DNA of 64,000 nucleotides, taken from the IMG/VR virus record IMGVR_UViG_3300028833_000071. The stretch is one strand, 5' to 3'. The number at the start of each line of letters is the position of its first letter. The first letter of the stretch is position 1. Shown in pieces: positions 3,815 through 53,064 of the stretch. The position numbers and the translations under genes are program-made. Origin of the DNA: a virus. Its lineage: Duplodnaviria > Caudoviricetes. The notes below the pieces were generated by a model. It had not been told where the DNA came from, searched no databases, and saw only the letters and a list, made by a program, of their open reading frames with translations.

Positions 3815-4426
3815 CTATTTTTCTAATGGTTTCCAATTTCTTTTTGCCATTTTTGCAAAATTTGCCCTTTTTCTTGTTAAAGGATTTTTTGAATGGGTTA
3901 ATTCTTCTGTTGATTTTCCTGTCCTTTTCTTTGTTGCATTGAATTTGCCTTTATTTTTGGGGTCAATTTCAATTTTGTTTTCTTCTTCATTGAAATTTTC
4001 TTGTAATTCCTTTTTTGTCATTTTATGACTTTCATGGATTTTTTTAAGACGGGCTTCTTCTATTTGGCGCTTTGAAAAACATTTATGTTCAGATATGCCA
4101 TCACCTGATACATCAATATCACCAGGAACATCAGGATTAACTTGTTGTTGTATGGCCTGTTGTATGTTCTCCCCTCTTCCAACATTTACATGTTGTGTCG
4201 GGGCTGAATCATTTGACCCGTTGGCATTTTGGTTTGAAATATGTAAATCAACATCACCGTATTTGCTTGCACTGTTAATTTCGGGTTGATTTTGTGTAAC
4301 AGCGTTTGTTATAGCAGGAATCGTGTTACCGGTTGTATTTATTTGGACGGTTGTGGTTGTTTCTTTTAAAACCTCATTCAACTGTTCTCTTGTCAATATA
4401 ATTCTTTTAATATTATTTTTTCCCAT
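3815..4426 (-). CDS. Putative virion/internal head protein with N-terminal IILTREQLNEVLKE peptide
   Basis: ORF in the head operon; several (I/L)xE sites; basic C-terminus (RKRANFAKMAKRNW). Confidence 0.6.
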   Translation of the reverse strand: MGKNNIKRIILTREQLNEVLKETTTTVQINTTGNTIPAITNAVTQNQPEINSASKYGDVDLHISNQNANGSNDSAPTQHVNVGRGENIQQAIQQQVNPDVPGDIDVSGDGISEHKCFSKRQIEEARLKKIHESHKMTKKELQENFNEEENKIEIDPKNKGKFNATKKRTGKSTEELTHSKNPLTRKRANFAKMAKRNWKPLEK

Positions 4427-4453
4427 ATCAAGTAGTTTTTCCAATATTCTTTA

Positions 4454-5002
4454 TTAATTCATAAATTTAGGGTTGCTAAATGGTGAATTATTTGTTTTTG
4501 ATTGTTTTTTTGGTAATTCTTTTCTGTTATTTTTATTCATTAATTCATCTTGTGTTGGCCCGAAATTTTCTTGAATTTTATTTATTTGTTTTTTTGTAAA
4601 GATAACTTGTTCCATCATGGGTTGCTCTTCTCCACCATTTTGTTGAGTTTCGTCTCTGCTTAACATACTTTCAGCATATGACCTTACAGCCTCTTTATCT
4701 TTGTCTGATAGTTTGTTAATTATTGATAATGTGTCGTCACCACCACCCATATTGGGGTCTTCATCACCCATAGGGCCACCTATATTGGGGTCTTCGCCGC
4801 CCATTGGCCCACCTGCATTTGGGTCATTACCCATATCACCCATAGGGCCACCCATATTAGGGTCTTCACCGCCCATTGGCCCGCCTGCATTTGGGTCATT
4901 ATCCGTTGGCATATTCATATTAGGGTCTTGAGACAAAGAAGCATCATCTACTGACGGTTCTTGCATATTATTTGCCGTAGATGATGCTTTATTTAATTTC
5001 AA
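4454..5002 (-). CDS. Gly/Pro/Met-rich head-region ORF; probable -1 frameshift extension of 5032..6714
   Basis: Only a TTG start near the 5' end; the frame stays open back to the A9 run at 5041-5049; DPNxGGPMG repeats. Confidence 0.6.
   Translation of the reverse strand: MKLNKASSTANNMQEPSVDDASLSQDPNMNMPTDNDPNAGGPMGGEDPNMGGPMGDMGNDPNAGGPMGGEDPNIGGPMGDEDPNMGGGDDTLSIINKLSDKDKEAVRSYAESMLSRDETQQNGGEEQPMMEQVIFTKKQINKIQENFGPTQDELMNKNNRKELPKKQSKTNNSPFSNPKFMN
4745..4900 (-). repeat. Imperfect tandem coding repeat (DPNAGGPMGGEDPNxGGPMGD), about 60-bp unit
   Basis: Repeated cccattggccc(a/g)cctgcatttgggtcatt blocks. Confidence 0.8.
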
Positions 5003-5031
5003 AAAGGTTTTTTCGCTTAATGAATTTTCAT

Positions 5032-6714
5032 TCAGTCCACTTTTTTTTTATTTGCACCTTCAATCGGTATACCTTTTTTTAATTGATACATAACATCTTT
5101 TGTGACATTATTAACCAATTCAGTAAATGGGTCACCATTGCCTATTTTGCTTCCAAAAGGCTCTTCGTTGTGGACACTTTCGTCATTCCAGTCTCTACCC
5201 CATTGATTTTGGTCTTCACCTGTTGTAGGTAATTCCATGGGTTTTTTTCTGTAACCGGGGTGTTTTCCGAAAACATGTAATTCATCCTCATTAAGAAATT
5301 GATTAACAACCGATTCAACAATACGATTCATTTTTGCCCTTTTTGATTCCATCATTTGTTGTGGTATTTCACCGCATTCTTCAATTTCGTCAAAGCCTTC
5401 TTCACCATCATTTTCGTCAAAATCATCCTCTTCAAAATCTTCTTCCTCGAAATTTTCATCTTCATTATTATCAAGTTGTGCTTTCAAAGTTTCTATTTCG
5501 GCTTTCAAAGAATCAATTTCACTTCTTAAATCTTCATCTTCTGTTTCATTATCCATTTCAAGGTCGAAATCAGCATTGATTGAATCTTCATCTTCGGTAT
5601 CGAAATCGTCATTATTTAAATCGAAATCTTCTTCAGTTTCATCTTCGTCATTAAAGGTTTCATCTTCGCCGTCAAATTCAGCATCGACAGTATCTTCTTC
5701 TGTTGAATCTAATTCATCAGTGTTGTCACCATCAATGGTTTCTTCCTCATCATCAATTGAGAAAGTATCTTCCTCTTCCTCGTTTATTGAATTGTTAAAT
5801 GGGTCATTGTTGTGGTCAGTATCGGCTTCACCAACGCCAGCTGCATTTGGTAAACCTTCGTCCCATTCATTTGTCTCTTCGTTTACTGTTTCTTGGTCAT
5901 CCATGTCCCAACCAATTTGCTCTGGGTTTCTACCTTTATTTATTCCCTCAGTTCCCCAGTTTCTTGTATTTGGCAATAGTGGAGCATCACCGATATCACC
6001 GGCTTCTTCATTGCAATTTCCTTGGCATTCACATGGATTTTTACCGCATTTTCCACAGCAAGCGCCTTCATTCATTCTTTCAGTAAATGGATTACCTGTT
6101 TTGTCAGCGTGTGGTTTGTTACCATTAAAGCCTTTAACTTTATCTTGGTCAACAACTTTTGCGTCAGTTCCATCATTGATTGTATTTCCGTTTTTCTTTG
6201 GCGTTTCGGGATTTTTGCCGTCATATTTAACAACATTATTTTTATTTGAAGCACCAATTTCGTTTGCTTCGTTCATAATCATTGATGCATTGGACATAAT
6301 TTGTCTTTGACGTGCAATTTCATCTTTCATATTTTTAGTACATTCAACCAAATACTCTTCTTTTCTAAATGGGTCTAAAGTTGAAATATTTACAGTGCCA
6401 TTGTGTGCTTCATTAATCGAGGCCATTTTAAGTTCGAAATTCTTCAAAGCATTGGCATAACTTGTATATTCATAGTCACGTTTATTGCAAAAACCACCAA
6501 GATAGTCATATGCTTCAGCAACCATTTCTTTGTCTTTTGGTGCTGATTTAATGTAATACTTGCTGCATTCTTTTATAATACCATAACTTTTACCATCGGC
6601 TGCAATTGCATGATGTTCCAAAGTGTGAGCTTTAATATCATTGCTTTCGTTTAACTCTTTACCATAAGTGTAAAGGCCTTTCATTCTAGCAATCGTCTCT
6701 TCAAAATTTGACAT
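5032..6714 (-). CDS. Large acidic head-region (core/internal) protein
   Basis: 560 aa; long D/E tract plus short coiled coil; many (L/I/M/V)NE sites; CTATTTAT motif at 6757-6764. Confidence 0.7.
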   Translation of the reverse strand: MSNFEETIARMKGLYTYGKELNESNDIKAHTLEHHAIAADGKSYGIIKECSKYYIKSAPKDKEMVAEAYDYLGGFCNKRDYEYTSYANALKNFELKMASINEAHNGTVNISTLDPFRKEEYLVECTKNMKDEIARQRQIMSNASMIMNEANEIGASNKNNVVKYDGKNPETPKKNGNTINDGTDAKVVDQDKVKGFNGNKPHADKTGNPFTERMNEGACCGKCGKNPCECQGNCNEEAGDIGDAPLLPNTRNWGTEGINKGRNPEQIGWDMDDQETVNEETNEWDEGLPNAAGVGEADTDHNNDPFNNSINEEEEDTFSIDDEEETIDGDNTDELDSTEEDTVDAEFDGEDETFNDEDETEEDFDLNNDDFDTEDEDSINADFDLEMDNETEDEDLRSEIDSLKAEIETLKAQLDNNEDENFEEEDFEEDDFDENDGEEGFDEIEECGEIPQQMMESKRAKMNRIVESVVNQFLNEDELHVFGKHPGYRKKPMELPTTGEDQNQWGRDWNDESVHNEEPFGSKIGNGDPFTELVNNVTKDVMYQLKKGIPIEGANKKKVD

Positions 6715-6781
6715 ATTATTTCTTCTTTTTACTTATTATTTTCTTTTTTTTTTCTTATAAATAGCATTAAAAATAAAAAAA

Positions 6782-8371
6782 TTAAGGTAAACTGTTTAAA
6801 TTATCATATGTTTTGGAATTTAATTGCCATAATTTATCCAAATATCCAAGTCTGCGCAATGATTTATAGATTATATTACCATTTGATATTTCAGATTTAC
6901 CTTTATTTAATCCGCTTTTTCTTTCATTTTTGATAACATCCCATAATTTATCTGCTTTATCGGCAATAATTTCAATTTTATGGTTATCGTTTTTATATCT
7001 ATTATATAAATCAATAAGTTCATCAATATTATCAATATATTTTGCAACTTTTGATTTAATTAAATGTTTGTTTACTTTTGATTTTGCTAATTTATCTCTT
7101 TTTGGCTCAGTAAGCCATTCGTTTTTATCCAACGAATAAACACCGCTTGAGGCATGTGCTTCATTTGTGTCTTGCACATAAACTTCAACTGGGAAACCAT
7201 ATATATTCAAATCTTTATGCTCTTCATTCCAAATATTTTTTAATGAATCAAAGTATTTTTTAACAAATTCCGTTTTTTCATCAACTTTGGAATAATCAAT
7301 CAAAACATGTAAATCAATGTCTGAATATTTTTTATGCCAATTATAATTAGCCAAAGAGCCTGTGATTATAACATCATCAGGTTCAACCCAGTCAACGCCC
7401 AAGAAATCAATAAAATCATCGGCAATATCCATGAGTTTCAATCTAATTCTTGAATCAAGCAAATTGTTTTTCCAAAATTTAGGATTAAGTTCATGTTTTA
7501 TATTAAATGAGGATAAATCAACATCCTCAGGGTCTGTTTCGTCTATTATATTTGTTTCTTTTATGGCCTGTTCATTTAGCGTAAATTTTACTGTGCCATA
7601 ATATTTACCACATTTTGAACATTTATAAACAGGCTCACCACAGATATAAGTTCCTATTTTTCCACCACAATCGCAATAATCGGGGACAATTTCACCTTCT
7701 TCATTTTCTATTTCTTTGTTTTTTGATTCTTGCAATACATCTTTGTCTTTTGAATTTTCGTATTCGGTCCATTTTCTGAAATAGATATTACCTTTAAGAT
7801 ATGCCTCTGCTTCAATTTTCTCAAGTTCTTTATTATCTTTAACATCATCTTCTGAAGTAAAATTAAGATTTATACCTTCCAAATTTTGCATGTGGTGAAT
7901 CATTTCATGGGCAAATGAGCGTAAAATATCTTTAATATGTCTGTCATTGCAGAATATGGTGACTGATTTTTCTTCGGGTGAATAAAAGCCTGTGCGTATA
8001 AATAATCCTTCTTGTTCAGACCAATCAAGATTTAAATCCGGATAAGGGAAAACATTAAGCCCATCTTCTTTCATAAAATTCTCAATTTCATGGCAGTATT
8101 TTCTAATATCTTTTTCACTGTCTTTGTTATTTTCATTAATATGATAATAGGGGTTTAAATCCATGGATTTTTCAGGACCAAGCATAAAAGTATCAGAATT
8201 ATCAGATTCAGTGTTTTCTTCCATAGCACCACAACCTGTTATAGCGTCCATTATTCCTGCATTCACTTTTTTATGAACTTGGTCTTGCGCTGCGGGTATT
8301 TTTTTTTCAGACAACCTTTCAAAATCTTTGATTTTACCTATTTGCTCTTCTGTTATATATATCGTTTTCAT
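6782..8371 (-). CDS. Multidomain protein: zincin-like metallopeptidase + Zn ribbon + Pol-beta-type nucleotidyltransferase
   Basis: FAHEMIHH...EAEAY; CDCGG...CSKCG; ITGSLANYNW...SDIDLH...VEVY; N-terminal IYITEEQ peptide. Confidence 0.75.
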   Translation of the reverse strand: MKTIYITEEQIGKIKDFERLSEKKIPAAQDQVHKKVNAGIMDAITGCGAMEENTESDNSDTFMLGPEKSMDLNPYYHINENNKDSEKDIRKYCHEIENFMKEDGLNVFPYPDLNLDWSEQEGLFIRTGFYSPEEKSVTIFCNDRHIKDILRSFAHEMIHHMQNLEGINLNFTSEDDVKDNKELEKIEAEAYLKGNIYFRKWTEYENSKDKDVLQESKNKEIENEEGEIVPDYCDCGGKIGTYICGEPVYKCSKCGKYYGTVKFTLNEQAIKETNIIDETDPEDVDLSSFNIKHELNPKFWKNNLLDSRIRLKLMDIADDFIDFLGVDWVEPDDVIITGSLANYNWHKKYSDIDLHVLIDYSKVDEKTEFVKKYFDSLKNIWNEEHKDLNIYGFPVEVYVQDTNEAHASSGVYSLDKNEWLTEPKRDKLAKSKVNKHLIKSKVAKYIDNIDELIDLYNRYKNDNHKIEIIADKADKLWDVIKNERKSGLNKGKSEISNGNIIYKSLRRLGYLDKLWQLNSKTYDNLNSLP

Positions 8372-8475
8372 TATTTAAAAAGAAATTATCATTTATAAAT
8401 AGAATGGTTCAAAAAAAAAGTCAGCCATTTCTGACTGACTTTATACTTTAACACTTACTTTATTTAACATTCGGT

Positions 8476-8700: not shown

Positions 8701-8810
8701 TTCTGATATTTTTTTATTGTTATTATTTAATAATAAATAGTTTGGAAAAACAAAAAAAAGTCAGTTTTTATTTAACTGACTTTGTGTTATTTACCTTAAA
8801 AACTTAAAAA

Positions 8811-9649: not shown

Positions 9650-12244
9650 ATGAACAATAACAATGACCAAACATTTGACATTATGAATGATATTAATATG
9701 TCAAATGAACTTGAAGGACTTTTTAATTTCATTGTTGAAGATTTGTCAAAAGAATTGCCGACTTTAACAATAGATTTGAATTATTTTATGCTTGGCGCAT
9801 TAATTGAAAAGAACAACAACTTATATAAACGTCTTGAAATGTGTATGATGACAAGCACATTGGGCGCAATTTACAATAGTTTTTATCAGGTTGTAAGTTC
9901 TAAAGCATTAAGTGCGGTAAAGGCCAATAGAAAGGTAAGTTTTGATACCAAGGTGATTGAAACGTTTAAAAAGGCTGAAGAGATTGCAAAAGAATTGGAA
10001 AGCGAGGAAACAACCTCGGAACATGTGTTTCTTGCAATTTTAAACGATACTGATGATACAAATAAAATAAGAAAAGTATTTAATAAAGCTGGCTTGACTT
10101 ATGGCGTTTTCAAAGATAAACTTCAAGACAATCTTATTTCATTCAATGGAGATGGTGAAATGGAAAGTTCTGTCTTGGATGGAATGAGTGTTAAATTTAT
10201 TACGGCGAGAACACCGGAAGAGGCAATAAAGAAAATGAAAGACATGAAAGAAAAGGAAGAAGGAGAAATAAATTTGAATTCAGATTTAAAATTAAATAAG
10301 TCAAAAAAATCCAATTCCAAAACACCATATATTGACACATATTGTGTTGATTTAAATGCACTTGCTGAAAATGGTAAAATGGAACCAATAATAGGCCGTG
10401 AAAAAGAAATAACTGAAATTATTAGAATTCTTGGGCGAAAGAATAAGAACAATACAATTTTGGTCGGTGGAGAGGGTGTTGGTAAAACTGCTATTGGTGA
10501 AAATATAGCATATAAAATAGTAAACGGTGACGTGCCTGAATTTTTACTTAATAAAAGGCTCGTTTCACTTGATATGACAGCTATGATGGCAGGTACAACG
10601 CTTAGAGGTATGTTTGAAGAACGTGTTAAGGGCGTGATGGATGAAATAAAGAAGAATAAAAACTTTATCCTTTTCATGGATAATATAGGGGCAATTTTGG
10701 CTGATAAGGGGCGTAATGATTTCGAGTTTTCTTCCATGTTGTCACGAGGTCTCGAAACAGGCGATATTCAAGTAATTGGTACTTCTGATTTTGCTTCCTA
10801 TAGAAAAACATTTGATAAAGACCCAAGTTTGGCGAGACGTTTTCAAAAGATAATTGTCGAAGCACCTAATGTTGAAGAAACTGTTAAGATATTGAATGGT
10901 ATTAAATCTTCATATGAAGAGTATCATAAAGTTGAATATAATGAGGAGGTAATCAAGACATGCGTTAAACTTGCCGACAAATATATTTCAGAAAGAAATT
11001 TGCCTGATTCGGCTATTGATGTTTTGGATGAAATTGGTTCTTTAATTAGTACTTCTAATGAGCCCGAAATATTAAAGGAATTAAAGAAAGACATTAATAC
11101 TCTTGAAAATAAGTTAGAAGTCGCAAAAAGAGAAAAAGACTACGAAAATGTAGACGAAATATCAAAACAAATCATTTCATTAAAGCAGCAATATAATGAT
11201 GAAAAAGATGGTTATGAAAAAAATAGGACCGAAAATCACATACCTGTGACTGTTGATGATATACTTAATCTAATATCTACAAAAACAGGCATTCCAGTAA
11301 GTAATTTGAATTCTGATGATAAGAAAAAATTGTCAGGAATTAATGATAGGCTTAAGGAAAGTGTTATTGGACAAGATGAAGCAATTGATACTGTCTGTAA
11401 GGCATTGAAACGTAATAGAATTGGACTTAGCAATAACGGTTGTATGTATAGTTATATGGCAATCGGTAAAACAGGTACAGGTAAGACTTTATTGGCGAAA
11501 AAACTTGCTAAAGAACTCTTTGGTGACGAAAAGGCCCTTGTGAGGTTTGATATGTCTGAATATTCAGATAAGGTGTCAGTAAATAAACTCATTGGTTCAA
11601 ATCCTGGCTATGTTGGCTATGAAGAGGGTGGACAATTGACTGAAACCATTAAGAACAAGAAACATTGTGTTCTTTTGCTTGATGAAATTGAAAAAGCAGA
11701 CCCTGAGGTTTACAATATTTTCTTACAGGTTCTTGATGAAGGTTTCTTAACTGATAATTCAGGACAACGTGTGGATTTCAAGAATGTTATAGTTGTTTTT
11801 ACTTCTAATGTGGGTGCAAAGGCAGCTAGTGAATTTGGAAAAGGAATCGGTTTTGCTAACGATGAGGAAGAAAATACAAAGAGAATTCTATTGAAGCAAC
11901 TTAAAAACAGATTTCCACCTGAATTTTTAAATCGTATCAATGATGTTATCTATTTTAACACGTTGAATGACAATGACCTTAATTCAATTATTAAGATTGA
12001 AATCAATAAACTTGAAAACAGATTAAATGGAATGGGATATTCCATGGAATATGACAATGATGTTGTCCAATATATACTTAAAGAAATACAAGAGGAAAAA
12101 GATTTTGGTGCAAGGCCAATCATAAGATGTATCCAAGAGAATATAGAAGACAAATTAACCGACAAATTGCTTGAAAACGATTATGAAAAGGGGTATGTGT
12201 TTAAGGTTTCATGTCCCGCATTAAGTGTGGTAACTGTTGCATAA
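9650..12244 (+). CDS. clpC: ClpC/ClpA-like Hsp100 ATPase
   Basis: Clp N domain; two NBDs (GVGKT; GTGKT, LLLDEIEKA); GYVGYEEGG; IGF loop (KGIGF); FGARP. Confidence 0.9.
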   Translation: MNNNNDQTFDIMNDINMSNELEGLFNFIVEDLSKELPTLTIDLNYFMLGALIEKNNNLYKRLEMCMMTSTLGAIYNSFYQVVSSKALSAVKANRKVSFDTKVIETFKKAEEIAKELESEETTSEHVFLAILNDTDDTNKIRKVFNKAGLTYGVFKDKLQDNLISFNGDGEMESSVLDGMSVKFITARTPEEAIKKMKDMKEKEEGEINLNSDLKLNKSKKSNSKTPYIDTYCVDLNALAENGKMEPIIGREKEITEIIRILGRKNKNNTILVGGEGVGKTAIGENIAYKIVNGDVPEFLLNKRLVSLDMTAMMAGTTLRGMFEERVKGVMDEIKKNKNFILFMDNIGAILADKGRNDFEFSSMLSRGLETGDIQVIGTSDFASYRKTFDKDPSLARRFQKIIVEAPNVEETVKILNGIKSSYEEYHKVEYNEEVIKTCVKLADKYISERNLPDSAIDVLDEIGSLISTSNEPEILKELKKDINTLENKLEVAKREKDYENVDEISKQIISLKQQYNDEKDGYEKNRTENHIPVTVDDILNLISTKTGIPVSNLNSDDKKKLSGINDRLKESVIGQDEAIDTVCKALKRNRIGLSNNGCMYSYMAIGKTGTGKTLLAKKLAKELFGDEKALVRFDMSEYSDKVSVNKLIGSNPGYVGYEEGGQLTETIKNKKHCVLLLDEIEKADPEVYNIFLQVLDEGFLTDNSGQRVDFKNVIVVFTSNVGAKAASEFGKGIGFANDEEENTKRILLKQLKNRFPPEFLNRINDVIYFNTLNDNDLNSIIKIEINKLENRLNGMGYSMEYDNDVVQYILKEIQEEKDFGARPIIRCIQENIEDKLTDKLLENDYEKGYVFKVSCPALSVVTVA

Positions 12245-12245
12245 T

Positions 12246-12276
12246 AAAAAAGCCCGATTTATTTCGGGCTTTTTTT
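12246..12276. terminator. Bidirectional intrinsic terminator
   Basis: A-run-gcccga-tttatt-tcgggc-T-run between convergent genes. Confidence 0.8.
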
Positions 12277-12544
12277 ATACATTTGTAAATCCATATTTTT
12301 CAAGAACATCTATCAATTCTAAACATAAGTCTTCTTGCATTTGTGAATTGGCATAGGCTTCTATTTTATATATTTTGTTTGTTATTCCTTGAATGTGTTT
12401 ATTAAAGGCTTCATTACTAAATGTCCCATTAACGCCAAAATCCGTTTTACGAAAGCCGCCTTCTTTCAAAACTCTTTTTACTGACTCAGATACAATTTTA
12501 TTTAATTGGTTTTCGTTGATTTTAATAACTTGTTTCTTGTTCAT
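12275..12544 (-). CDS. Small protein with the canonical N-terminal KKQVIKINENQLNKIVSESVKRVLKE peptide
   Basis: Same peptide recurs at 48847; CTATTTAT at 12574-12581. Confidence 0.7.
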   Translation of the reverse strand: MNKKQVIKINENQLNKIVSESVKRVLKEGGFRKTDFGVNGTFSNEAFNKHIQGITNKIYKIEAYANSQMQEDLCLELIDVLEKYGFTNV

Positions 12545-12619
12545 ATTTTAAACATTATTTATCTTATTTTTATATAAATAGTCAAAAAAGCAAAAAGGTC
12601 AGTCTTCATCGGACTAAAT

Positions 12620-13237
12620 TCATGCTATTGGGCACATAGTTTCCTTTATGTTTTTGCCTTCTTCTAATTTTTTCTTTTGAATTTCAATATATTCAGAAAA
12701 AGGCTTTCTTTGTTTATTTCCTCTATAAAGCCATTTTTTGAATAATCGTAATGAAACTCCTGTTATTGCTCTAAATCCTTTCCATCCTTTGCTATAGTTT
12801 GCAAGATATGCTTTTTTGGCTTCTTTTTTTGAGTTAAACCCAATCATGACCTTACTTTCATCGAATTCGTCTTCCTTGTTATTTTGGTCAATAACATATA
12901 CTTTATCGAAATCATCCGTATGTGGACCGATAAAAACATCAACGGCATCACCATCTTTGCCATTACCTGTCGTATTAGTGAAATAGCCATAATGGTTTTT
13001 CATAATTACAAAACCTTCTGTACCATCGTCATTTTTATATTTTCTTTTTGAGCCTTTTGGATTTTCGATTGAAATAGGCATACCTTTTACATAAAAATGG
13101 CCCATACGGTAATTTCCCGCTTTTTTTTGTGCTTCAGTGGGCGTAGTATTAACATTTTCACATTTCGCATTAATTTCTTTTGAGGAAATTTCGGAAATTA
13201 GATGTTTTATTTGATTTTCTGTTAATATGACTTTCAT
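12620..13237 (-). CDS. Polyvalent-protein-type inorganic pyrophosphatase (InPase) domain protein
   Basis: PTEAQKKAGNY, ISIENPKGS, YGY...DGDAVDVFIG, FDESKVMIGF; N-terminal VILTENQ peptide. Confidence 0.8.
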   Translation of the reverse strand: MKVILTENQIKHLISEISSKEINAKCENVNTTPTEAQKKAGNYRMGHFYVKGMPISIENPKGSKRKYKNDDGTEGFVIMKNHYGYFTNTTGNGKDGDAVDVFIGPHTDDFDKVYVIDQNNKEDEFDESKVMIGFNSKKEAKKAYLANYSKGWKGFRAITGVSLRLFKKWLYRGNKQRKPFSEYIEIQKKKLEEGKNIKETMCPIA

Positions 13238-13238: not shown

Positions 13239-14249
13239 CTATTTCAAAAAGTTAATATCAAGTGTTCCATGTACACCTATTTTATTATTTAGCCAAGCGT
13301 TCATTACTTTTCCCAAGAATAAATCACGCTCGGTTTTATCCAGAAACATTTTTTGAAATGTATCAATAAGATAATCTTTTAAATCATCAGTATACATGTA
13401 TTTTAAAACATTATCACCGTCCATCATACTGACAATTTTAATCTTTTTCTTTTTGCCGCCTTCTAATGTGGTATAATCATATTTCCTAAAGTTATTGTCA
13501 AGATGTTTTTTAACTATCAAAACCTTTTCGGGGTCAATACAATATGGCTTGTTGACTTTTTTATCAACAGGCATTTGTGTTTTTTGAATATAATCTTCTC
13601 TTAAAAGTTTAATTAATTTTTGTTCTTGTTTTTCTGACAATATAATTTTTTTACTTTCGTTAACTTGTTGTTGTGGCGTTTGCCCTTGTTTTGCTTGTTG
13701 CAATTTTGTCAGCCTTTCTCTTAATTGTTGTAATTCAGCAAACATTTTTTGCGTTTTTTCTCCAAATTCTTTATCATTTAAAATATGTTCACCTTGATTG
13801 GTTTCATCATCTAAAATATCAGGTATTTCTTCACCATTTATTAAAACATCACTATCACTTTTATCATTCTTTTCCGATATTTTCCATCCGTCCTGATTTA
13901 TTCTAGCGGCTATTTGATTAAATTCTTTTCCATGTTCAGGTAATATATGTAATATCAAAACACAGTATTCATGTATCATTTCATGGAGTAAACTATTTTG
14001 GAATGACCATTCGGTCCTATAATAGCCTTTATTAAATGCTAATTCGCCTGAATCATTGGCCTTTATTATCTGTTTTCCTTTATATTGTGCAGTATTATTG
14101 CGATAAACGGCCCAATTTTCAGGTTGACAATTATAACTGAATTTTGGCGTTGGTAAACTTTCGTTAAAATATTTTTTGTTAAAATAATTGAAGTTATTTA
14201 CCATCCACTCTTTATCGGGCACCATTTTATTTTTATCGTATTCTTTCAT
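13239..14249 (-). CDS. SprT-like metallopeptidase domain protein
   Basis: FNYFNKKYF..LP, LLHEMIHEY, HGKEF; internal VNESKKIILSEKQ peptide. Confidence 0.75.
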   Translation of the reverse strand: MKEYDKNKMVPDKEWMVNNFNYFNKKYFNESLPTPKFSYNCQPENWAVYRNNTAQYKGKQIIKANDSGELAFNKGYYRTEWSFQNSLLHEMIHEYCVLILHILPEHGKEFNQIAARINQDGWKISEKNDKSDSDVLINGEEIPDILDDETNQGEHILNDKEFGEKTQKMFAELQQLRERLTKLQQAKQGQTPQQQVNESKKIILSEKQEQKLIKLLREDYIQKTQMPVDKKVNKPYCIDPEKVLIVKKHLDNNFRKYDYTTLEGGKKKKIKIVSMMDGDNVLKYMYTDDLKDYLIDTFQKMFLDKTERDLFLGKVMNAWLNNKIGVHGTLDINFLK

Positions 14250-18357: not shown

Positions 18358-19266
18358 ATGTCAAAGAATTTTTTAAACGAAGTTAAGTCATTAATTAATA
18401 GAATGGAAAACCCTGAAACATTAAATGAGGCAAAGACAAATTTTAGATTTATTGAAAATCCGGAAAAACTTCCCGATATGCTTACGAGTCTTAAACCAGG
18501 TAAAATGTTTACATTTGGATATGTAACTGCTGCTTCGGTTGATTATCCAACAGTAAAGAAGAAAAACCCTGAAACAAACAGAATGAAAGCCTATAATGAT
18601 TATGAAACATTTGGGAAAAATCTTGGAGAAGAGGGTGAAATCGTAGGCGTTATTAAAGTCGCCATGTATAATTTTCCATGGCAAGAACAACAGGGTGTTA
18701 TTGATAGATATAATGATTGGAAAACTAAGAGAGACGAACTTGCTGCAAAATTTGGTGTTGAATATGGAAAAGCTAGATATGGTACTGAAATGAATGATTT
18801 TGGCAGTGGCCTTCAAAGTTATAAAGGTAATAATCAGGAACTTATGGGGAATACTTATTTGAATTTTATTTCACCAAATGAGATTAAGGCGTTTAAGAGT
18901 ACTTATTACTTATTATTTAAAGATGGTAGCATTAAAGAAGTCGATAAAAATAAATTAAAATTTAAAAATGCAAAACCTGCATATGATGCTCTTCAAAAAT
19001 TAAGAGACGCTGGCGCAACAGAAAAAGATTTGGAGGGCCTTGCCACAATGAATTATAAAAAATTTGAAAACTCACAAATTTTGTTTGTATCAGGAACTGA
19101 AATAGATGGCGTACCTACTCTTTTAATTAACGATAAATTATCGGATAAAATAAGTGGCATAACTGGCGCAAACCGTGAGGCTATCATTCAGATTGCAAAA
19201 GACAGGTATGCAGACGCTCTTAATGTACAAGAGGGTAAAGAAGCAGTTTTTGTTGAAGTTTTATAA
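18358..19266 (+). CDS. Putative virion protein (late motif; N-terminal FLNEVKSLINRME...LNE)
   Basis: CTATTTAT at 18317-18324, embedded in the upstream gene. Confidence 0.6.
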   Translation: MSKNFLNEVKSLINRMENPETLNEAKTNFRFIENPEKLPDMLTSLKPGKMFTFGYVTAASVDYPTVKKKNPETNRMKAYNDYETFGKNLGEEGEIVGVIKVAMYNFPWQEQQGVIDRYNDWKTKRDELAAKFGVEYGKARYGTEMNDFGSGLQSYKGNNQELMGNTYLNFISPNEIKAFKSTYYLLFKDGSIKEVDKNKLKFKNAKPAYDALQKLRDAGATEKDLEGLATMNYKKFENSQILFVSGTEIDGVPTLLINDKLSDKISGITGANREAIIQIAKDRYADALNVQEGKEAVFVEVL

Positions 19267-24732: not shown

Positions 24733-25125
24733 ATGGCATTTAAAAAAATTAATTTAACAGAAGAGCACTTGAAACTCATTGAAAACATCAAGTTCGAAAA
24801 GTTTATATTCGACATGGACACTAGAAATGGCCGCTTTGGTTGGGGAATCGACCAATATAGTCTTTTCGGTGGTAGTTATGCCATGGAAGATATTGCTTTG
24901 ATTCTTGGCCATTGGGGTGAGTACATAAAAGGCACCGAGGAAGACCCTATGGGAAGACGCTATCCCGAAGAAATGGAAAACCATATGTGGGACCTTTATA
25001 ACTATTTGTGGGATAATATGGAATATATAATCAAACTTGTGTTTTACTTCACTAATAAAGGCGGATTAACACCTGGTGAATACAAATTTAACACAAATGA
25101 CGAAACTTGGGAGAAAATAAACTAA
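24733..25125 (+). CDS. Hypothetical protein
   Basis: ORF preceded by TTGTATATTT motif. Confidence 0.6.
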   Translation: MAFKKINLTEEHLKLIENIKFEKFIFDMDTRNGRFGWGIDQYSLFGGSYAMEDIALILGHWGEYIKGTEEDPMGRRYPEEMENHMWDLYNYLWDNMEYIIKLVFYFTNKGGLTPGEYKFNTNDETWEKIN

Positions 25126-25544: not shown

Positions 25545-26045
25545 TTATTCTTTACCTAATTTTAAAATTTTCTTAACTGATTCATTAACCATATAGCATA
25601 AATCAGACATGGTAATATCCATTTTTTTGCTTTCACTTAATGTATTTGAAAGTTCATTTTTAAGGTGAAGTGCTTCTTCAGGACTTAAGTATTGTGGATT
25701 TCCATTACTATCTGGTTTATGGTTTAATTTTTTATAGAGTTTACTCCTTGCATTCTTATGCTCATTATCATCACCTTCTTTACCATTGCTGTCACTAATC
25801 GAAAGGCCTTCCAATTTGTATGCATAAGGAGCAATGTTTATGCCTGGTTTTTTCAATTCTTTTTCAACTGAGATTCTAACTTTGCGTTCTTTTTCAGTTT
25901 CATCATCAGAAGATTCATTGCTATTATAATCATAATCTTCACTTTCTTCATTATACATGTTGGAAAGGTCTGTTACACTCTCTTTAACTAATTTGTCTAT
26001 GATTTTATTAAGGCGTTGTTGCTCATTCATTATTTTCTTTTTCAT
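25545..26045 (-). CDS. Putative virion protein with tag peptide at both termini
   Basis: MNEQQRLNKIIDKLVKESV...LSESKKMDITMSDLCYMVNESVKKIL; CTATTTAT at 26063-26070. Confidence 0.65.
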   Translation of the reverse strand: MKKKIMNEQQRLNKIIDKLVKESVTDLSNMYNEESEDYDYNSNESSDDETEKERKVRISVEKELKKPGINIAPYAYKLEGLSISDSNGKEGDDNEHKNARSKLYKKLNHKPDSNGNPQYLSPEEALHLKNELSNTLSESKKMDITMSDLCYMVNESVKKILKLGKE

Positions 26046-26097
26046 GTAAAATATATTTTTACATAAATAGTTTTATTTTTCAAATTATTTGAAATTG

Positions 26098-35490: not shown

Positions 35491-38103
35491 TTAAGGTACT
35501 AAATCTGCTGGTGTCCATTTCTTTATTATACCATTTCTATCTTTGCCAACATGTGTCTCGTATTCTTGGTTGGTGTTAGTAATTAATATATTGGTATAAT
35601 TATTGTAATCACCTTTAACACTTTCTTCGATTATACAATTCTTAATGACATTATTTGAAGAGGTAACTTGTGATGATGTTAACTTTACACATTCAACGCC
35701 ATTTTTAAATTCACAATAATGTACATGGCCTATAAGATGTTCTGTATCGGAACCGAATATAATGTTTTTGGAATTAATGCCAAATATATTAGAACAACAA
35801 TCTTCACCTAAATTTATATCAGATGCATTAGTATTAAATATATTATAATTACAATCATTTTTTAAATTAATACCGTTAGAACCAATTTTTAATGTATTAC
35901 TATAACAATTGTAGCCAAAAGTATTAAAATGGCAATTATTTTCTAAAATATTAGAAAAACAATATCCATCAAATGTATTATTAATACAATCACAACCTAA
36001 GCAATTACTGGTAAAAACATCCTGTGTATTATTATCATGACAATAATCTCTAAATTTATTAGACGCACAATAAGCACCAAATACATTCGTATTACAATTA
36101 TTGACAAATTCATTAGAATAAAATTCAATATTTGCAACAATATTATAACAATTAATACCAAATATATTTGAAATACATCCAGGTAAAAATGTCATTGAGT
36201 GGCAATTAGAATTAAACATATTGGAATAACAATAATGTGTAATACCTTCATTTTCATCATATGACAAAACGATGTTGTTAAGTATTTGTTCACGATAATA
36301 ACTACCTACCTGATTATTTTTTCTTAATGGCAATATTATATTATCATAACAATATTTAGTAAATTGTCCGTTTGAATTATTATCAATATTATTTAATGAG
36401 CCATCTATTATATCTGTTTTTTTAATATATGTAAATGTATAATAATAAGCAGAAGCACCATTATAATGATAAACCTCACCACCCAGACCCTCATGCGGAA
36501 AATGCGCATTATCAATATCCGGATTTAAGAAACCCGCATATGTATCTTTTAAACTCATTACACCTGTGGTTCCACTAATTACATTATCTATATAATAACG
36601 TTTAAACATTATATTTTTAAAATCATAAGGGGCTTTGTTACCAAATTCATCCTCCATTTCATATATAACACCTTTACCGTTAACTTCATCGGCCCATTTA
36701 AACCTATTGATGTTATTATCTAAGCAATATTTTAATTTCCATACATTAAGATTATTATAACCAAAATAAGGAGGTTTATTTTTACTTTCACTATCTTCAT
36801 GCATAATAGCACCTGCATTTTCAGATAATGTTTTCTCGTCAATTGCAAAAACAATCACATCAAAATCGTGCCCTGCTGATTGTGTATCAGTTTGTGTCGT
36901 AGTACATGTATAGTCTGTAATACGATAAAAATGGCCTGGGTTAAGATGTTCAGCATCTCGTAAATCTTTTAACTCTGAATAGGTTAATGGTATCATGGCC
37001 GAAGGTAAATCAATAATAATATTACCAGCTGTCGGTTTTAAAACAGTGCCACGATTTACATCATTAACAATCACATCACCTGTTGGTATGTTTATATTGT
37101 TTTGTGATGGGGAATAAAAAGGTGTAGAAAGGTTAATTGCTGTTGGACCACCCACAGTCAAAAAACTTGTTTCACCATCAAATGAACCTGTAGGGCCTTG
37201 TGGTCCTGTAGGCCCGACATTTCCATCTAATCCGTCTCGGCCATCTTTTCCTGTAGGACCTTGAGGACCTTGTTCACCTTGAGCACCGGTAGGACCTTGT
37301 GCACCTGTTTCGCCTGTTGGACCTTTAGGGCCCTGTATAGGACCGACATTTGTCCATAGATTATTGTTAAAAACATATAAATCACCATTTATAAGATAAC
37401 CATCACCTGGATGTGGGTCTACAATATCCTCCAAATCACTTTCATCTTCTAATGTTCCTTGTATTACAACACTTGTTCCATCATTGCCCTGTGGACCTGT
37501 GGGACCTTGTGGACCGACTGAACCTGTGGGACCTTGTGGACCTGTTAAACCCATACCTTGTGGACCTGTGGGACCTATTGGGCCATTTAAACCTGTTGGA
37601 CCGACGGCACCTGTAGGACCTTCAGGACCGATTTCACCTGTGGGGCCGATTTCGCCTGTTTTACCTGTAGGACCTTGTGGGCCAATTAAACCTGTAGGAC
37701 CGATGGCACCTGTAGGACCCATAGGGCCATCTTCTCCTTGTGCACCATCATCACCTTTTAACCCTTTAGGACCTGTAGGACCTATTGGACCAATTAAACC
37801 TGTAGGGCCAATTTCACCTGTTGGGCCTTGTGCACCTGTAGGACCTTGAGGGCCTTGTTCACCTTGAGCACCTGTAGGACCGACCATACTTGAACCATCG
37901 GCACCATCTTTACCCTTTGGACCTGTTGGACCTGTTGGACCCACCTCACCTTTAGGACCTGATTTACCCATACATCCCTTTGGACCTTGTAAACCTTGCT
38001 CTCCTTGTGGACCTGTAGGACCAGTAGAACCATTTTTACCTGGAGCACCTTGGCATCCTCTTGGACCTGTTGGACCTATCATATAAATTACTTCGTTTTC
38101 CAT
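35491..38103 (-). CDS. Collagen-like fibre protein with Asn/Cys-rich C-terminal beta-solenoid-like repeats
   Basis: Long G-P-T/G-x-y tracts; [12 protein letters not shown] spacer; NxFGxNCxxN repeats. Confidence 0.8.
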
Positions 38104-48185: not shown

Positions 48186-48261
48186 AATTGTGAGAGTTTA
48201 AATTGACTGCAAAGATATGATTTTTTAAGATATTCGACTATTTATAAAGAAAATATAGTCA

Positions 48262-49401
48262 ATGATTGCAGCGAACATAATAAGTGGCATACTACAACGA
48301 TACAAACAAATATGCGCCAAATACCCGCAATCCCCTTCGTTTATACCCAATACCAATGGTGACTCGTTTTATCTTGTAAGAGAAAGAGATGGGAATCGCC
48401 CTGTTCAAGTTCGTATTTCCAATCATGGCACATATCTTAGCAAATGGTGTGATAGGGAAGAATTGGGGAATAGTGTTGAAAGACTTGACCCTGCATTATG
48501 TGACAACATATCAATTGCTTTTATTGACGATGGTAATGATATAACCAAGGATTGCAAGGGAAGACAAGATTGTGAAGACTGCAATATTCAACCTTGCATA
48601 CCACAAACATTCGATGGACAGAATGAGTTGGGAAAACCGTTTAAAGTTATACAATACACCTATAAAAGCAGTCAAATTTCACCAAGGTATATCAACGGGC
48701 TTACCAAAGCTATTGCAGAAGCAAGTGTAAGCGGAAAGTATAACGACCCGTTGGCTAATCTTGTGAAAGCTGCAAAGAAAAAACCACTTTCATCATCAGA
48801 AAATAACCAAGAAATAAAAGAGAATAAGAATAATAAATACAAGAAAATGAATAAGAAACAAGTAATTAGAATTAATGAAAATCAACTCAAACAGATAATA
48901 ATGGAATCTGTGAAAAATGTTATAAAAGAAACCAAGTTCCAAAGAGGATATTATAACATTACGGATGACATGTCTTTTAGAGACATACAAGACAGAATGC
49001 GCTATTTTGGTATAGAAGGTGGAAGAATGGCAGAACCTAATTATCTACCGAAACAATGGATTAAGAAACGTCTACGCCCTAAGGATACAGAATATGTATA
49101 TAATGTTGAAAATCTAATTGATAAGCCAAATATTGTGTCAGTTCTTGACACTGGTACTGATACTTTTTTTGGTGTTGATAAAGACGGTAATATTTATGGT
49201 AATGGGAATCCTGATGAATGTATTGGTAATTTGAACACTGATAAGATATATGGAACAGGATGTTTTGGTGATTATTGTTGGTTGATAGTGTATAAAGATG
49301 AAAAACAAGCTTTGTTTGATTACAGAGGAATTATATGTTACGGTAAAGTGATTCAATTAGATAACGGAACGTATTTCTTTGCAACTAAGCAGCGCACTTA
49401 A
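48262..49401 (+). CDS. Two-module late protein with internal tag (MNKKQVIRINENQLKQIIMESVKNVIKE); C-terminus probably altered by the IS1595 remnant
   Basis: N-domain with VRISNH motif; tag at 48847; stop codon lies inside the GC-richer IS sequence. Confidence 0.65.
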   Translation: MIAANIISGILQRYKQICAKYPQSPSFIPNTNGDSFYLVRERDGNRPVQVRISNHGTYLSKWCDREELGNSVERLDPALCDNISIAFIDDGNDITKDCKGRQDCEDCNIQPCIPQTFDGQNELGKPFKVIQYTYKSSQISPRYINGLTKAIAEASVSGKYNDPLANLVKAAKKKPLSSSENNQEIKENKNNKYKKMNKKQVIRINENQLKQIIMESVKNVIKETKFQRGYYNITDDMSFRDIQDRMRYFGIEGGRMAEPNYLPKQWIKKRLRPKDTEYVYNVENLIDKPNIVSVLDTGTDTFFGVDKDGNIYGNGNPDECIGNLNTDKIYGTGCFGDYCWLIVYKDEKQALFDYRGIICYGKVIQLDNGTYFFATKQRT

Positions 49402-49606
49402 CGGTTTTCACGTCCTCAAACGTCACCACATTAAGGGCTCGTTCCATAAGGACGGCAAATCTTTCACCACCCTTTAATCCACGGTTGTTGTACCTGAAGA
49501 CGGCTTCGTCAACATAACGCTGCATGTACTTGCGTGAAACGTAGTGGTATGTCCCGTACACCATACGCTTGAACTGTCCCCAAAAGCCTTCAATCGTGGG
49601 AGTATG
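49385..49606 (-). pseudogene. IS1595-family (ISXO2-like) transposase C-terminal fragment
   Basis: Translates as HTPTIEGFWGQFKRMVYGTYHYVSRKYMQRYVDEAVFRYNNR...KCAA*; higher GC than flanks; no start codon. Confidence 0.85.
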
Positions 49607-49656
49607 TCAGAAAAAAAAAGTACAAAGAAACAACTATTTATAATAAAAATTAATAT

Positions 49657-51213
49657 ATGGGCAAATATAATTCATATTTAGATGTTGAGCCTCAAATAGA
49701 AAATACCAAGGACGGTACTAAGAAAAAGATTAATTTTTGGGGTATTAAAGATAGACAAGACGCAGAAAATATATTAGATGCAATTACTGAACCTGGCGAT
49801 AGTACATTTGCAAGAAAAGGTTTACCTGGTAAAAATATTTTAAGAGCATGGTATACGCCTTCAAGAACTAATATGGGCCTTTTTGTGGTTGTTGCAAATG
49901 AAGCAGTTGAAGATTTTATAAATACAGGCTTAAGAAGCATAATATTTTCATTGCTTAAAAGTAATAATTATGATAAAGAAAAAATAGCAAATCTTGAGCA
50001 TGAAGTTGCACATAAGTTGGAAACAAGTGATAGTTGGGCTGATAAAAGGAAAGCATTGGCAGACGCTGATGTTCATGTTGCTGACCTTTGGCAACGATAT
50101 TTAAATAACATAAATGACCCTGTTACAAGAGAAGCCCTTAAACTATATTCTCAAATTTATACAACAACATCATATGGCCATGCTTTAAGTTTGGCTAATG
50201 TTATGCGTATTAGGGCTATTAACCCCGATGCAACATTTGTACTTTCAGAAACAGTATGGAATTCGTGGGGCTATGGCATTAAAAGAGGTGCTAAAAAATA
50301 TCCTTTATGGGCTGTTCGTTTTACACAAGGAATATCAAAAAAGGATTTGGAAAATGCAAAAGCAAAACTTGGCCATGAACTTGAACAATTAGGTGATTTA
50401 GGCGTTGCTGTTCAAGAAGCAATCCGTATTGAAGCAGAAAAAGAGGCTAATAAAGGTTTGAAACCTATGTTTATACTATATTATGGTTATGATATTGCAG
50501 ATACATATCAATATAATTCCAAAGAGGTAAGTCCTTTGATGTCAAAACCGAATATTTCAAGTAATGTTGTATATAAGTTAAATGCTTTGGCACAAAAACT
50601 TGAAGATGAGAAGGAAAAAGGCTTAGGCGAAAAAGAAAAAGAAATAAGGGATACAACTGACATGAAATATAATGTTGCTTCTGAAACAATGATAAATTTA
50701 TGCGAAAAAAACGGTATTAAAACAGAAGATATAGTTAACAATAGTACCTCTAACCAAAAAAAATTAATAAATTTATTAGATGCCTATTATAATTATATAA
50801 TAAATGCATCTTCAAATAAAAAGAGCCCGAATAAAATCAATGTTTTAAAACCTGAAAATATTCAAAATTATATTCAAGATGCAATTCAATTAACATTATT
50901 AATGAATAGCATTCCATTTAACAAGAATGATTTTACACATTCGGAAATATATAATCAAAACGAAGCGGCAACACTCGGCCCAATTATTAGAACAGCAGCT
51001 GAAGCGATTGGTAAAGCATTGAACCCTAAACAAAAAGATAATGTTAATGAGGGTATTTTTGAAGAAGGTGCATTTGGTTTATCATTTGACGAAGCATTGA
51101 AAAAACTTGGTATTAAAGTAGTTTCCGACAATACGCCTGAAATGCAAATGGAGGCAATCAAAGAGAATTTCAATAAAATGTTAAATAGAATTAATAATCC
51201 TATAATTTATTGA
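49657..51213 (+). CDS. Late protein with ArdC-N-like ssDNA-binding domain
   Basis: SLANVMRIRAINPDATFV....WNSWGYGIKRGAK...YDIADT; C-terminal IKENFNKMLNRI peptide; CTATTTAT at 49634. Confidence 0.65.
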   Translation: MGKYNSYLDVEPQIENTKDGTKKKINFWGIKDRQDAENILDAITEPGDSTFARKGLPGKNILRAWYTPSRTNMGLFVVVANEAVEDFINTGLRSIIFSLLKSNNYDKEKIANLEHEVAHKLETSDSWADKRKALADADVHVADLWQRYLNNINDPVTREALKLYSQIYTTTSYGHALSLANVMRIRAINPDATFVLSETVWNSWGYGIKRGAKKYPLWAVRFTQGISKKDLENAKAKLGHELEQLGDLGVAVQEAIRIEAEKEANKGLKPMFILYYGYDIADTYQYNSKEVSPLMSKPNISSNVVYKLNALAQKLEDEKEKGLGEKEKEIRDTTDMKYNVASETMINLCEKNGIKTEDIVNNSTSNQKKLINLLDAYYNYIINASSNKKSPNKINVLKPENIQNYIQDAIQLTLLMNSIPFNKNDFTHSEIYNQNEAATLGPIIRTAAEAIGKALNPKQKDNVNEGIFEEGAFGLSFDEALKKLGIKVVSDNTPEMQMEAIKENFNKMLNRINNPIIY

Positions 51214-51220
51214 AGATATT

Positions 51221-52276
51221 ATGATAACTGAAGAACGCATAAAAAAGATTATAAATGAGGTGATTAGTGAATATTGTGTCGATGAGAGCGGTGAAGATTT
51301 TGGCGTTAATGTTAAAGGTGATTTAACAATTGATGACATTAAACAAGGTGAAAAACTTTATCATAGGCCTAATGATTCTTCGGACAGCAATCCGCTTTCA
51401 GTTATTAATAGTTTAATGAAATACGGTTTTAGTAGAGAGTATACAGGTAGTAACGGAGGAAATATGTATGGGCCCGGTGTTTATAATGTCTATTCTCTTC
51501 GCTCTTCAAATGACAGGGCGACAGGATATGGTAGATACATAGTGCAATCATATTTATTAGGCGGTTATAAAGATTTTCTGATTTTTAATATTGATATGGC
51601 AAAAAGAATTTATGGAGAAGAATGGCCGATAATCAATCAGATAAAAATGTTAATGCCTGAAAAATTGACACAAAGGGTTTTAAATAACATTAGAGGCTTG
51701 GGCAGTTGTATGAATACCAATAAAACAAGTTATGATATAAAAACATCAGTAACAGCTAAAAAAATTGTTGATTTATTGGGCCCTGATATTGCTAAAACAA
51801 AAATTAGGGGGATTATTTATTCAGGCGGTCATGACGGTGATTGCTGTTTCGTTAGAAATTTTTCAGATGTTGTTCCATATAGTTATTCAAAAGATAACGG
51901 TAGAACATGGACTGTTGGTATAACAGATGAACTTATTTGGAGGGCGGGTCATAATACCGATGTAGAGGCCATAATAAAAAATCGTGTTGATGATAAAGGT
52001 AGAAAAATGTTTTCAGATACTGCGGAAAGAAGTATCAATGGTTTTGTAAGAGTTTATAAGAACAACAAAATGAACTACTTTGAAGTTGCGACAAATAAAC
52101 TAATATCTGATGTATGGTTTGATTTTGGTGAAGAGTTTGAAGACGATGATACAACGAAAGTAGTTTATAATGGGGCTAAATATACTTTAATGAAAAATGA
52201 AGACGGCAGATTTATAGTTTATGATGAAGATGATTGTCCTCTTTGTTATTTGGAAGATTTGCCTGAAAATATTTAA
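51221..52276 (+). CDS. Putative ADP-ribosyltransferase-fold protein with C-terminal WG-repeat-like region
   Basis: KLYHR...SLMKYGF...MYGPGVY...GYGRYIV...RGIIY; N-terminal ITEERIKKIINEVISE peptide. Confidence 0.55.
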   Translation: MITEERIKKIINEVISEYCVDESGEDFGVNVKGDLTIDDIKQGEKLYHRPNDSSDSNPLSVINSLMKYGFSREYTGSNGGNMYGPGVYNVYSLRSSNDRATGYGRYIVQSYLLGGYKDFLIFNIDMAKRIYGEEWPIINQIKMLMPEKLTQRVLNNIRGLGSCMNTNKTSYDIKTSVTAKKIVDLLGPDIAKTKIRGIIYSGGHDGDCCFVRNFSDVVPYSYSKDNGRTWTVGITDELIWRAGHNTDVEAIIKNRVDDKGRKMFSDTAERSINGFVRVYKNNKMNYFEVATNKLISDVWFDFGEEFEDDDTTKVVYNGAKYTLMKNEDGRFIVYDEDDCPLCYLEDLPENI

Positions 52277-52299
52277 ATAAAATTTTAAATTATTTTAAG

Positions 52300-53064
52300 A
52301 TGCAACTAACATACGATGATATACAATATTTAGTATTAGAATCAGTAAATAAAATCCTTTGTGAGAAAAAAAGCCTTATAGATAATTTTGATTTTGTTTC
52401 CAATATTCTTGATATTAATTCGCCTGATGACTTTCATTTTGTACAAATTATAAAAAGGTTCAAAGATAATCAAGGCGATGATAGAAGCAAGGGAAATTAT
52501 CATGGTGGTGCTTGGTATTTAGGTGGTTTTAGAGTTCACAATGCACAAGAGTTAATGGCTTTAAAACCTAAAATAATATCAATATGTGATAAAAATAATG
52601 CAAGGGCTTATATTACAATAAACAATCGTTCAGATAAAGAAACTGATAGTTATATAAAGGTCTATAGAAGACAATTTAAACCAACAGACGCAAGATATAT
52701 CCATGCAGACGAAATAGTACCAGGACAGGCAAAAGACGGCCCTAATTGGGTAGGAAAAAGAAAACGTCTTATCATCGACATAGATGTTCCAAAAGGCACA
52801 AAAACAAAAGAAGGTGATAATCTTTGGGATGAAGTGAAAGATATGATTGAAATGACAGGGATTAAACCATTAGGTGAATATGTAACACCAAGTGGAGGTC
52901 TTCATATTCTTTTACCTGATAAAGAAGATAAAAGATTTGTTTATCTTAAACAATTGTTCAAAAAATTTGATAATTGGAAAGATAAAGGAAGACTTGCTAC
53001 AGTTCATCCAAATGTTGATGCAAAGATAATTTTATATTCAAATGTTCAAACGGCAGGATATTAA
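52300..53064 (+). CDS. AEP primase-polymerase-like protein with N-terminal tag
   Basis: LIIDID, TPSGGLHIL; LTYDDIQYLVLESVNKILCE. Confidence 0.6.
   Translation: MQLTYDDIQYLVLESVNKILCEKKSLIDNFDFVSNILDINSPDDFHFVQIIKRFKDNQGDDRSKGNYHGGAWYLGGFRVHNAQELMALKPKIISICDKNNARAYITINNRSDKETDSYIKVYRRQFKPTDARYIHADEIVPGQAKDGPNWVGKRKRLIIDIDVPKGTKTKEGDNLWDEVKDMIEMTGIKPLGEYVTPSGGLHILLPDKEDKRFVYLKQLFKKFDNWKDKGRLATVHPNVDAKIILYSNVQTAGY

Follow-up and report, generated by a model that had tools for sequence, protein, structure and literature searches.

The window analysed here is a 64,000-nucleotide stretch of the IMG/VR virus record IMGVR_UViG_3300028833_000071, corresponding to bases 18118-82117 of a single contig of 147,462 bp with ~31% G+C. 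Judging by its genes, which include those for a Gp23-type capsid protein and a prohead protease of the S77 (gp21) type, the source is an uncultured phage related to T4. Otherwise unrelated proteins encoded in the window and elsewhere in the genome share a short peptide, hereafter the tag, which a first-pass annotation of the DNA had interpreted as a portable signal for loading cargo into the prohead. The major capsid gene (Gp23 family, PF07068, 8.5e-72) lies immediately left of the window. The gene between capsid and protease encodes a very acidic protein of 573 residues, L-x-E-rich at both ends, for which no family match was found and which we take to be scaffold-like. The protease, which the first pass had named as the releasing enzyme, is assigned to the gp21 type by its Pfam match (Table 1) and by a match to the T4 gp21 structure 5JBL (1.3e-20) with His and Ser conserved at the catalytic positions. 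The protease has 238 residues here; in some relatives the S77 domain forms the N-terminal portion of a ~607-residue protein (L022:7517-9340 in G001 and L104:3807-5633 in G006).

The tag is a 28-residue module running from Met to Glu, with the consensus MNKKQxIRxNExQLxxIVxESVKxVLxE in an alignment of 133 copies. Column information is 2.0-4.3 bits across the module and drops to ~1 bit at the residue right after the final Glu. The terminal L-x-E is nearly invariant (Leu in 127/132 copies, Glu in 132/132), and short variants comprise the module's first half, up to the internal V/I-x-E. An AlphaFold2 model of the 89-residue protein encoded at 12275-12544 shows an extended segment (residues 1-10), a confident helix from residue 11 that ends at E28, and a low-confidence linker before the cargo. 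Pfam holds no model for the tag, and a literature string search with four tag fragments found no paper containing them in the library covered. Across tag codons pS is 0.73 and pN 0.165; synonymous sites are thus close to saturation while the peptide is kept, which argues for selection on the peptide and not on the DNA. By this codon measure the tag is under strong purifying selection, and a purely DNA-level repeat was rejected on the same ground, the near-saturated synonymous divergence.

Carriers were sought with a strong profile, built from four clear copies and run on the 147-kb genome, and with a broad profile of 381 distinct tag copies, for which a shuffled proteome served as null and an empirical E ≤0.05 as threshold. 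The strong profile finds eight strong copies genome-wide (E 1e-17 to 1e-21), only two of them inside the window, namely the one that begins the product of 12275-12544 and the one inside 48262-49401, at 48847-48930. With the broad profile, a whole-proteome scan of the kind that the first-pass annotation had proposed as a check, the tag is detected as a family: 15 genome proteins pass (the eight strong ones and seven more), five of which lie in the window (12275-12544, 48262-49401, 25545-26045, 52300-53064 and 12620-13237). Besides the eight strong copies there are 17 weak matches where 2.6 are expected from shuffled proteomes, and nine of these fall within the first 25 residues against 0.5 expected. 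N-terminal, internal and C-terminal copies were all recovered by profile, as had been claimed. The initial count of at least 13 carriers in the window was too generous, however: all 13 quoted peptides are present in their genes, but five are statistically supported, about four are plausible short variants and four are unsupported. The four plausible ones, listed as weak in Table 1, individually score at chance level; three sit at true N-termini and that of 5032-6714 is internal. Such weak copies can be genuine, since in the cargo family of 104486-105451 (window coordinate, outside the window) the same-position N-terminus of 118 homologs grades from 41 bits via 8 bits in this phage to unrelated sequence. 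What looked like an internal copy (Met at window coordinate 73257, likewise outside the window) was dismissed: it belongs to a distinct gene that has a promoter of its own and lies within a longer, spurious frame. The explanation of internal position as a general artefact of open reading frame calling holds for that copy only and was otherwise rejected.

Table 1. Tags, promoter motifs and head genes in the window (window coordinates).
Feature	Position	Strand	Support
Scaffold-like protein, start (runs beyond window start)	1..1101	-	gene order between protease and capsid genes
Prohead protease, T4 gp21 family	1194..1910	-	Pfam Peptidase_S77 (PF03420) 1.2e-28
Full 28-residue tag, N-terminus of 12275-12544 (89 aa)	12461..12544	-	profile 61-70 bits
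CTATTTAT motif, 30 nt upstream of tagged gene 12275-12544	12574..12581	-	
Full tag, internal (residues 196-223) in 48262-49401	48847..48930	+	after ~190-residue N-domain and conserved NNQEIKEN-type linker
CTATTTAT motif, 17 nt upstream of 48262-49401	48238..48245	+	
C-terminal copy of tag second half in 25545-26045	25563..25616	-	11-15 bits, empirical E <0.03; CTATTTAT at 26063-26070
Divergent N-terminal tag, gene 52300-53064	52306..52365	+	6.1 bits, empirical E 0.05; same subtype in related loci
Short tag (first half, ends I-S-E), N-terminus of InPase protein 12620-13237	13190..13237	-	5.9 bits, empirical E 0.05
Weak tag-like N-terminus, nucleotidyltransferase-domain protein 6782-8371	8342..8371	-	4.8 bits; kept in syntenic G001 ortholog
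Weak tag-like N-terminus	4361..4426	-	4.4 bits; same place in G001 and G005 orthologs
Weak tag-like N-terminus, gene 51221-52276	51221..51271	+	2.3-2.7 bits, chance-level score; N-terminal position sole support
Weak internal tag-like helix, head-module gene 5032-6714	5287..5331	-	1-4.4 bits; kept in G001 ortholog
Quoted peptide, unsupported as tag	13626..13661	-	none of three profiles ≥0 bits
Quoted peptide, unsupported as tag	29761-29787	-	none of three profiles ≥0 bits
Quoted peptide, unsupported as tag	18370-18405	+	none of three profiles ≥0 bits
Quoted peptide, unsupported as tag	51157-51192	+	none of three profiles ≥0 bits

The family extends far beyond this genome. An exhaustive profile search of 1.84 billion representative metagenomic proteins returned 5,511 at E ≤1e-3 and 230 at E ≤1e-10; a word-indexed search gave 302 carriers, none of which had a Pfam domain. 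Of the 135 copies carried by the best 120 proteins, 87 lie at the N-terminus, 44 are internal and four lie at the C-terminus. Carriers are 84-607 residues long with one to a few modules, and the best representatives mostly have 2-4 copies, 70-130 residues apart. Complete relatives hold 8-18 copies each at E ≤1e-3, and the tag genes occur in arrays. What follows the tag is largely unrelated from protein to protein (80 BLAST groups among 115 proteins), and the same cargo is found both as a small gene of tag plus cargo and behind the N-domain seen in 48262-49401. This N-domain (48262-48846, plus strand; ~190 residues with a V-R-I-S-N-H motif and a Cys-rich stretch) precedes linker, tag and variable cargo in ~20 metagenomic proteins; it has no Pfam match, and the ESM Atlas gave only low-TM matches to what is a poor model. 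Internal copies of this type follow the conserved linker, which mostly has an I-K-E of its own. The exchange of cargo has a sharp edge: the product of 48262-49401 (P0015) shares 89% identity with its homolog P0103 up to the tag end, beyond which the two are unrelated. A 59-residue remnant of an IS1595-family transposase C-terminus (49385-49564, minus strand; PF12762, 1.3e-6) lies on the strand opposite to 48262-49401 and shares 17 bases with the 3' end of that gene.

The motif CTATTTAT occurs 17 times in the window where seven occurrences are expected. Most copies precede a start codon by 12-45 nt, and the genes concerned include those for the capsid, scaffold-like, portal and fibre-like proteins. 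Of the tagged genes, 8/21 have the motif no more than 80 nt upstream, as against 16/185 of the untagged ones (Fisher P = 8e-4), and most of the remaining carriers sit downstream of a gene preceded by the motif on the same strand. This distribution suggests that the carriers are expressed late, from a motif common to head genes. The gene 24733-25125 (plus strand) lies in a block without CTATTTAT and has a short-tag-like N-terminus that scores 3.5 bits, which is chance level; the gene may depart from the association of tags with late expression. In four paralogs the motif, a 30-nt leader and the tag are conserved jointly at the DNA level, which raises another explanation: promoter, leader and tag might form a cassette boundary, a homology handle by which downstream modules are swapped through recombination, with no targeting role of its own. 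CdiA-CT, Rhs orphan cassettes and the T-even internal-protein locus are examples of downstream modules exchanged in this way. The breakpoint exactly at the tag end in 48262-49401 and P0103, the occurrence of one cargo with and without the N-domain, and the arrays of tag genes fit such a handle as well. It would not explain why the peptide persists at near-saturated synonymous sites, nor why divergent tags with little DNA identity retain the same residues; recombination at the tag is compatible with a targeting role and would be expected under it. We thus consider a mere cassette boundary quite unlikely.

The cargo comprises several recognisable families. Among the domains named in the first pass, InPase (PF18823, 2e-47, from residue 35 of 12620-13237), SprT-like (9e-9) and nucleotidyltransferase domains were recovered by Pfam in window cargo, while ArdC-N and AEP were not confirmed by it. 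PHROG profiles matched by the InPase domain carry the annotations minor head, virion structural and DarB-like anti-restriction protein. Elsewhere in the genome the cargo includes ArdA, whose domain begins at residue 41 after a 40-residue tag-like N-terminal extension, a glucosaminidase, and a protein whose model (pLDDT 81) matches Tpt1/KptA and DarT of the ADP-ribosyltransferase superfamily (Foldseek E 1.6e-4). The gene 28954-29814 (minus strand), whose quoted tag-like peptide is among the four unsupported ones, has a sub-threshold match to MPTase-PolyVal, a zincin-like polyvalent-protein domain (E = 0.017), and Pfam searched to E 0.1 gave nothing for 48262-48846, 49657-51213, 51221-52276 and 52300-53064. 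Late production of ArdA is best understood if the protein travels into the next cell, and by analogy the cargo types suggest proteins suited to injection with the DNA. Cargo sequence amounting to 37.7 kb has an observed/expected ratio of 0.94 (0.84-1.04) for (L/I)xE, compared with 1.27 for untagged proteins of this genome, 1.08 for those of related loci and 1.17 for small untagged proteins; in the cargo (L/I)xQ (1.33) and (L/I)xK (1.38) are raised and (L/I)xD is unchanged. This relative depletion may hint at exposure of the cargo to the head protease. Shared leaders on unrelated proteins are also typical of modifying enzymes and export routes, so that the tag might be a leader of that kind (like those of ribosomally synthesised and post-translationally modified peptides, or secretion-like) and have no part in the prohead. 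We regard this as highly improbable: the module has no hydrophobic signal-like stretch, the cargos are folded enzymes of 60-500 residues, and within 10 kb of tags in eight contigs no enzyme family recurred, the only recurrent genes being those for homing endonucleases, tail sheath and head proteins.

Several observations tie the tag to head assembly. The S77 protease is present in 11/12 tag-bearing viral contigs that are at least 25% complete, and in the one contig without it an intact capsid gene is missing too, and the tags lie at the very end. Small tag genes directly adjoin protease, scaffold and capsid genes in four complete relatives (G006, G007, G008 and G011), and in the present genome conserved genes just upstream of the portal gene carry weak N-terminal variants. 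The scaffold-like protein itself resembles the tag: its residues 31-46 (964-1011) align with the second half of the module, ending in L-R-E (hhalign P = 1.5e-4), and the tag profile matches residues 30-47 in register in 104/120 homologs, again ending in L-R-E. A weaker second match places the first half of the tag near the scaffold C-terminus (P = 0.044). A ClpB/ClpA-like double AAA+ ATPase (9650-12244, plus strand; domains Clp_N, AAA_lid_9, AAA_2 and ClpB_D2-small) is encoded beside tagged genes here and is conserved in 5/5 relatives tested with 41-78% identity, which makes it a possible partner of the tag. The tag might accordingly be a general docking or oligomerisation helix for something other than the capsid, be it this ATPase, a host target or other tagged proteins, with L-x-E incidental. 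The very high conservation, polar positions included, and the many proteins with 2-4 copies would suit such a helix, and so would the ClpB-like neighbour. We nevertheless find it unlikely, since it leaves unexplained the exact stop of conservation at L-x-E, the clustering beside protease and scaffold genes, the similarity to the scaffold, the relative scarcity of (L/I)xE in the cargo and the late making of ArdA.

Beside the portal gene lies a low-complexity head-module gene (4454-5002, minus strand) with Gly/Pro/Met/Asp-rich repeats, whose position is kept in G001 and G005; its product may be a prohead core or internal protein. A single cleavage site in the capsid protein was not pinned down: alignment with T4 places the mature N-terminus near residue 45, and V-K-E at 44, L-Y-E at 51 and L-S-E at 60 all fit. 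An 870-residue protein with long collagen triple-helix repeats (35491-38103, minus strand; PF01391, 6.7e-35) is probably a fibre. Homing-endonuclease-type genes are found at 27922-28890 (minus strand), 61613-63484 (plus strand) and L021:1144-2856 (minus strand), one of them directly adjoining the capsid gene; they are of the HNH/treble-clef type or have a LAGLIDADG domain within a 623-residue protein, and the same families recur near tag genes in relatives. By capsid protein the nearest isolates, with 36-43% identity, are Flavobacterium phage immuto (40%), Microcystis phage Mel-JY01 and Rhodothermus phage RM378. The tag is absent from these nearest isolates, and tblastn with the portal and the 89-residue tagged protein against phage isolates gave zero matches. 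Close relatives are found among uncultured viruses, as IMG/VR contigs 295-412 kb long, and some of these have terminal repeats.

Taken together, we lean, with moderate confidence, towards reading the peptide as a long, highly diversified propeptide of the T4 capsid-targeting type that would load cargo into the capsid for injection. The first-pass interpretation as a prohead-loading tag agrees with the protease, the L-x-E end, the clustering with head genes, the promoter motif, the cargo types and the positions of the copies, while its mechanism is one that we infer. Late in infection, CTATTTAT-type promoters would drive the expression of proteins with the 28-residue module. This module, in which an amphipathic helix of 18 residues comes after ~10 extended ones, would dock the cargo into the scaffolding core of the prohead, probably by imitating or pairing with the similar N-terminal helix of the scaffold. 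The gp21-family protease would then cut after the invariant L-x-E at the module end, and it may also cut at the internal V-x-E and at the linker I-K-E ahead of internal copies. The freed cargo would remain in the head and be injected with the DNA at the next infection.

A number of points weigh against this reading. The tag has nearly three times the length of the T4 capsid-targeting sequence (CTS), is conserved far beyond the needs of a disposable leader, and by inspection has no sequence similarity to the CTS. Proteins with 2-4 copies are numerous, and a tag at the C-terminus would stay on its protein even if the protease cut at that tag's own L-x-E. The similarity to the scaffold is modest, with an hhalign probability of 52%. 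All tag-bearing genomes tested belong to one broad phage lineage, and the co-occurrence of tag and protease is therefore not independent evidence; the ClpB-like ATPase co-occurs with the tag equally well. The depletion of (L/I)xE is small, with an interval that meets that of one control, and the sets compared lack phylogenetic independence. Packaging and cleavage are themselves computational predictions.

If the tag is a loading signal, the at least 5,511 mostly uncharacterised protein clusters that carry it become candidate injected proteins of rumen and gut jumbo phages, and thereby a large catalogue in which to seek anti-defence and host-takeover functions. The portable capsid address of T4 would then have grown in scale and become modular, in arrangements that are N-terminal, internal, C-terminal or multi-copy. 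A bolder and rather doubtful extension holds that the tag is a copy of the scaffold N-terminal helix, so that cargo would enter by scaffold mimicry, that strings of tags and cargos are polyproteins which the head protease would cut into several injected effectors, and that promoter and tag form an exchangeable cassette that would load thousands of proteins across a lineage of Bacteroidota phages of 150-410 kb. Should this be true, the phages would deliver effectors on a scale comparable with that of a secretion system. The resemblance between tag and scaffold helix suggests a concrete way in which capsid addresses may be read, a matter still unsettled for T4, and attempts to package foreign proteins in phage heads would profit from a long, defined tag whose cut site is known.

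Among known systems the T4 CTS is the closest in logic. In both cases a short peptide is common to otherwise unrelated proteins of a T4-type phage and ends in hydrophobic-x-Glu, the cut motif of a phage-encoded gp21-family protease; the cargo is small and diverse, with anti-restriction and ADP-ribosyltransferase-type functions, and the loci are hypervariable, with the tag alone kept. T-even internal proteins form a diverse defence-countering set in which only the CTS is conserved (PMC3012670), and residues 8 and 10 of the T4 CTS, belonging to its I-A-E, govern processing (PMC9026906). The packaged ADP-ribosyltransferase Alt of T4 loses propeptides from both termini (PMC9026906), a precedent for tags at both ends of a protein. 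The differences are considerable. The tag has 28 residues instead of 10-19 and, by inspection, shares no alignable stretch with MKTYQEFIAE beyond hydrophobic-x-Glu; it is much more conserved and more widely used, with 15 or more carriers per genome fragment and no fewer than 5,511 clusters of proteins overall. It is also common internally and C-terminally, in 2-4 copies per protein, resembles the scaffold N-terminal helix and often travels with its promoter as a DNA cassette. Packaging of the tagged proteins is here predicted from sequence.

Giant phages of the phiKZ type (phiKZ, 201phi2-1 and SPN3US; PMC5694885, PMC10052503) likewise have an S77-family protease that cuts after Glu, as all characterised S77 proteases do (PMC5694885), and process many head-internal proteins, some of them paralogs with identical N-termini. 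Their propeptides, however, are mostly longer than 100 residues, family-specific and cut at A/S/G-x-E sites, whereas here a single short L-x-E module spans unrelated cargos. Polyvalent proteins (Iyer, Burroughs, Anand, de Souza, Aravind 2017, PMC5512222) appear to overlap with the present cargo in domain repertoire, through InPase, SprT/zincin-like and ADP-ribosyltransferase-like domains and the weak MPTase-PolyVal match, and are likewise presumed to be delivered with the DNA. They combine many domains in one giant polypeptide, while the carriers described here have 84-607 residues; their domains stand alone in small genes or are strung together in groups of 2-4 modules, with a tag for every module. 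Encapsulin cargo-loading peptides are also short and portable and send unrelated cargo into an HK97-fold shell, but they are usually C-terminal and uncleaved, serve a bacterial compartment and are unrelated in sequence. CdiA-CT/Rhs polymorphic-toxin cassettes share the sharply bounded conserved motif followed by exchangeable C-terminal modules, although the context of the tag is a phage head module and not a secretion locus. Set against these systems, and on the evidence of its sequence, the tag most likely represents a T4-type address in a longer and far more widely used form, and the family to which it belongs is real and very large.

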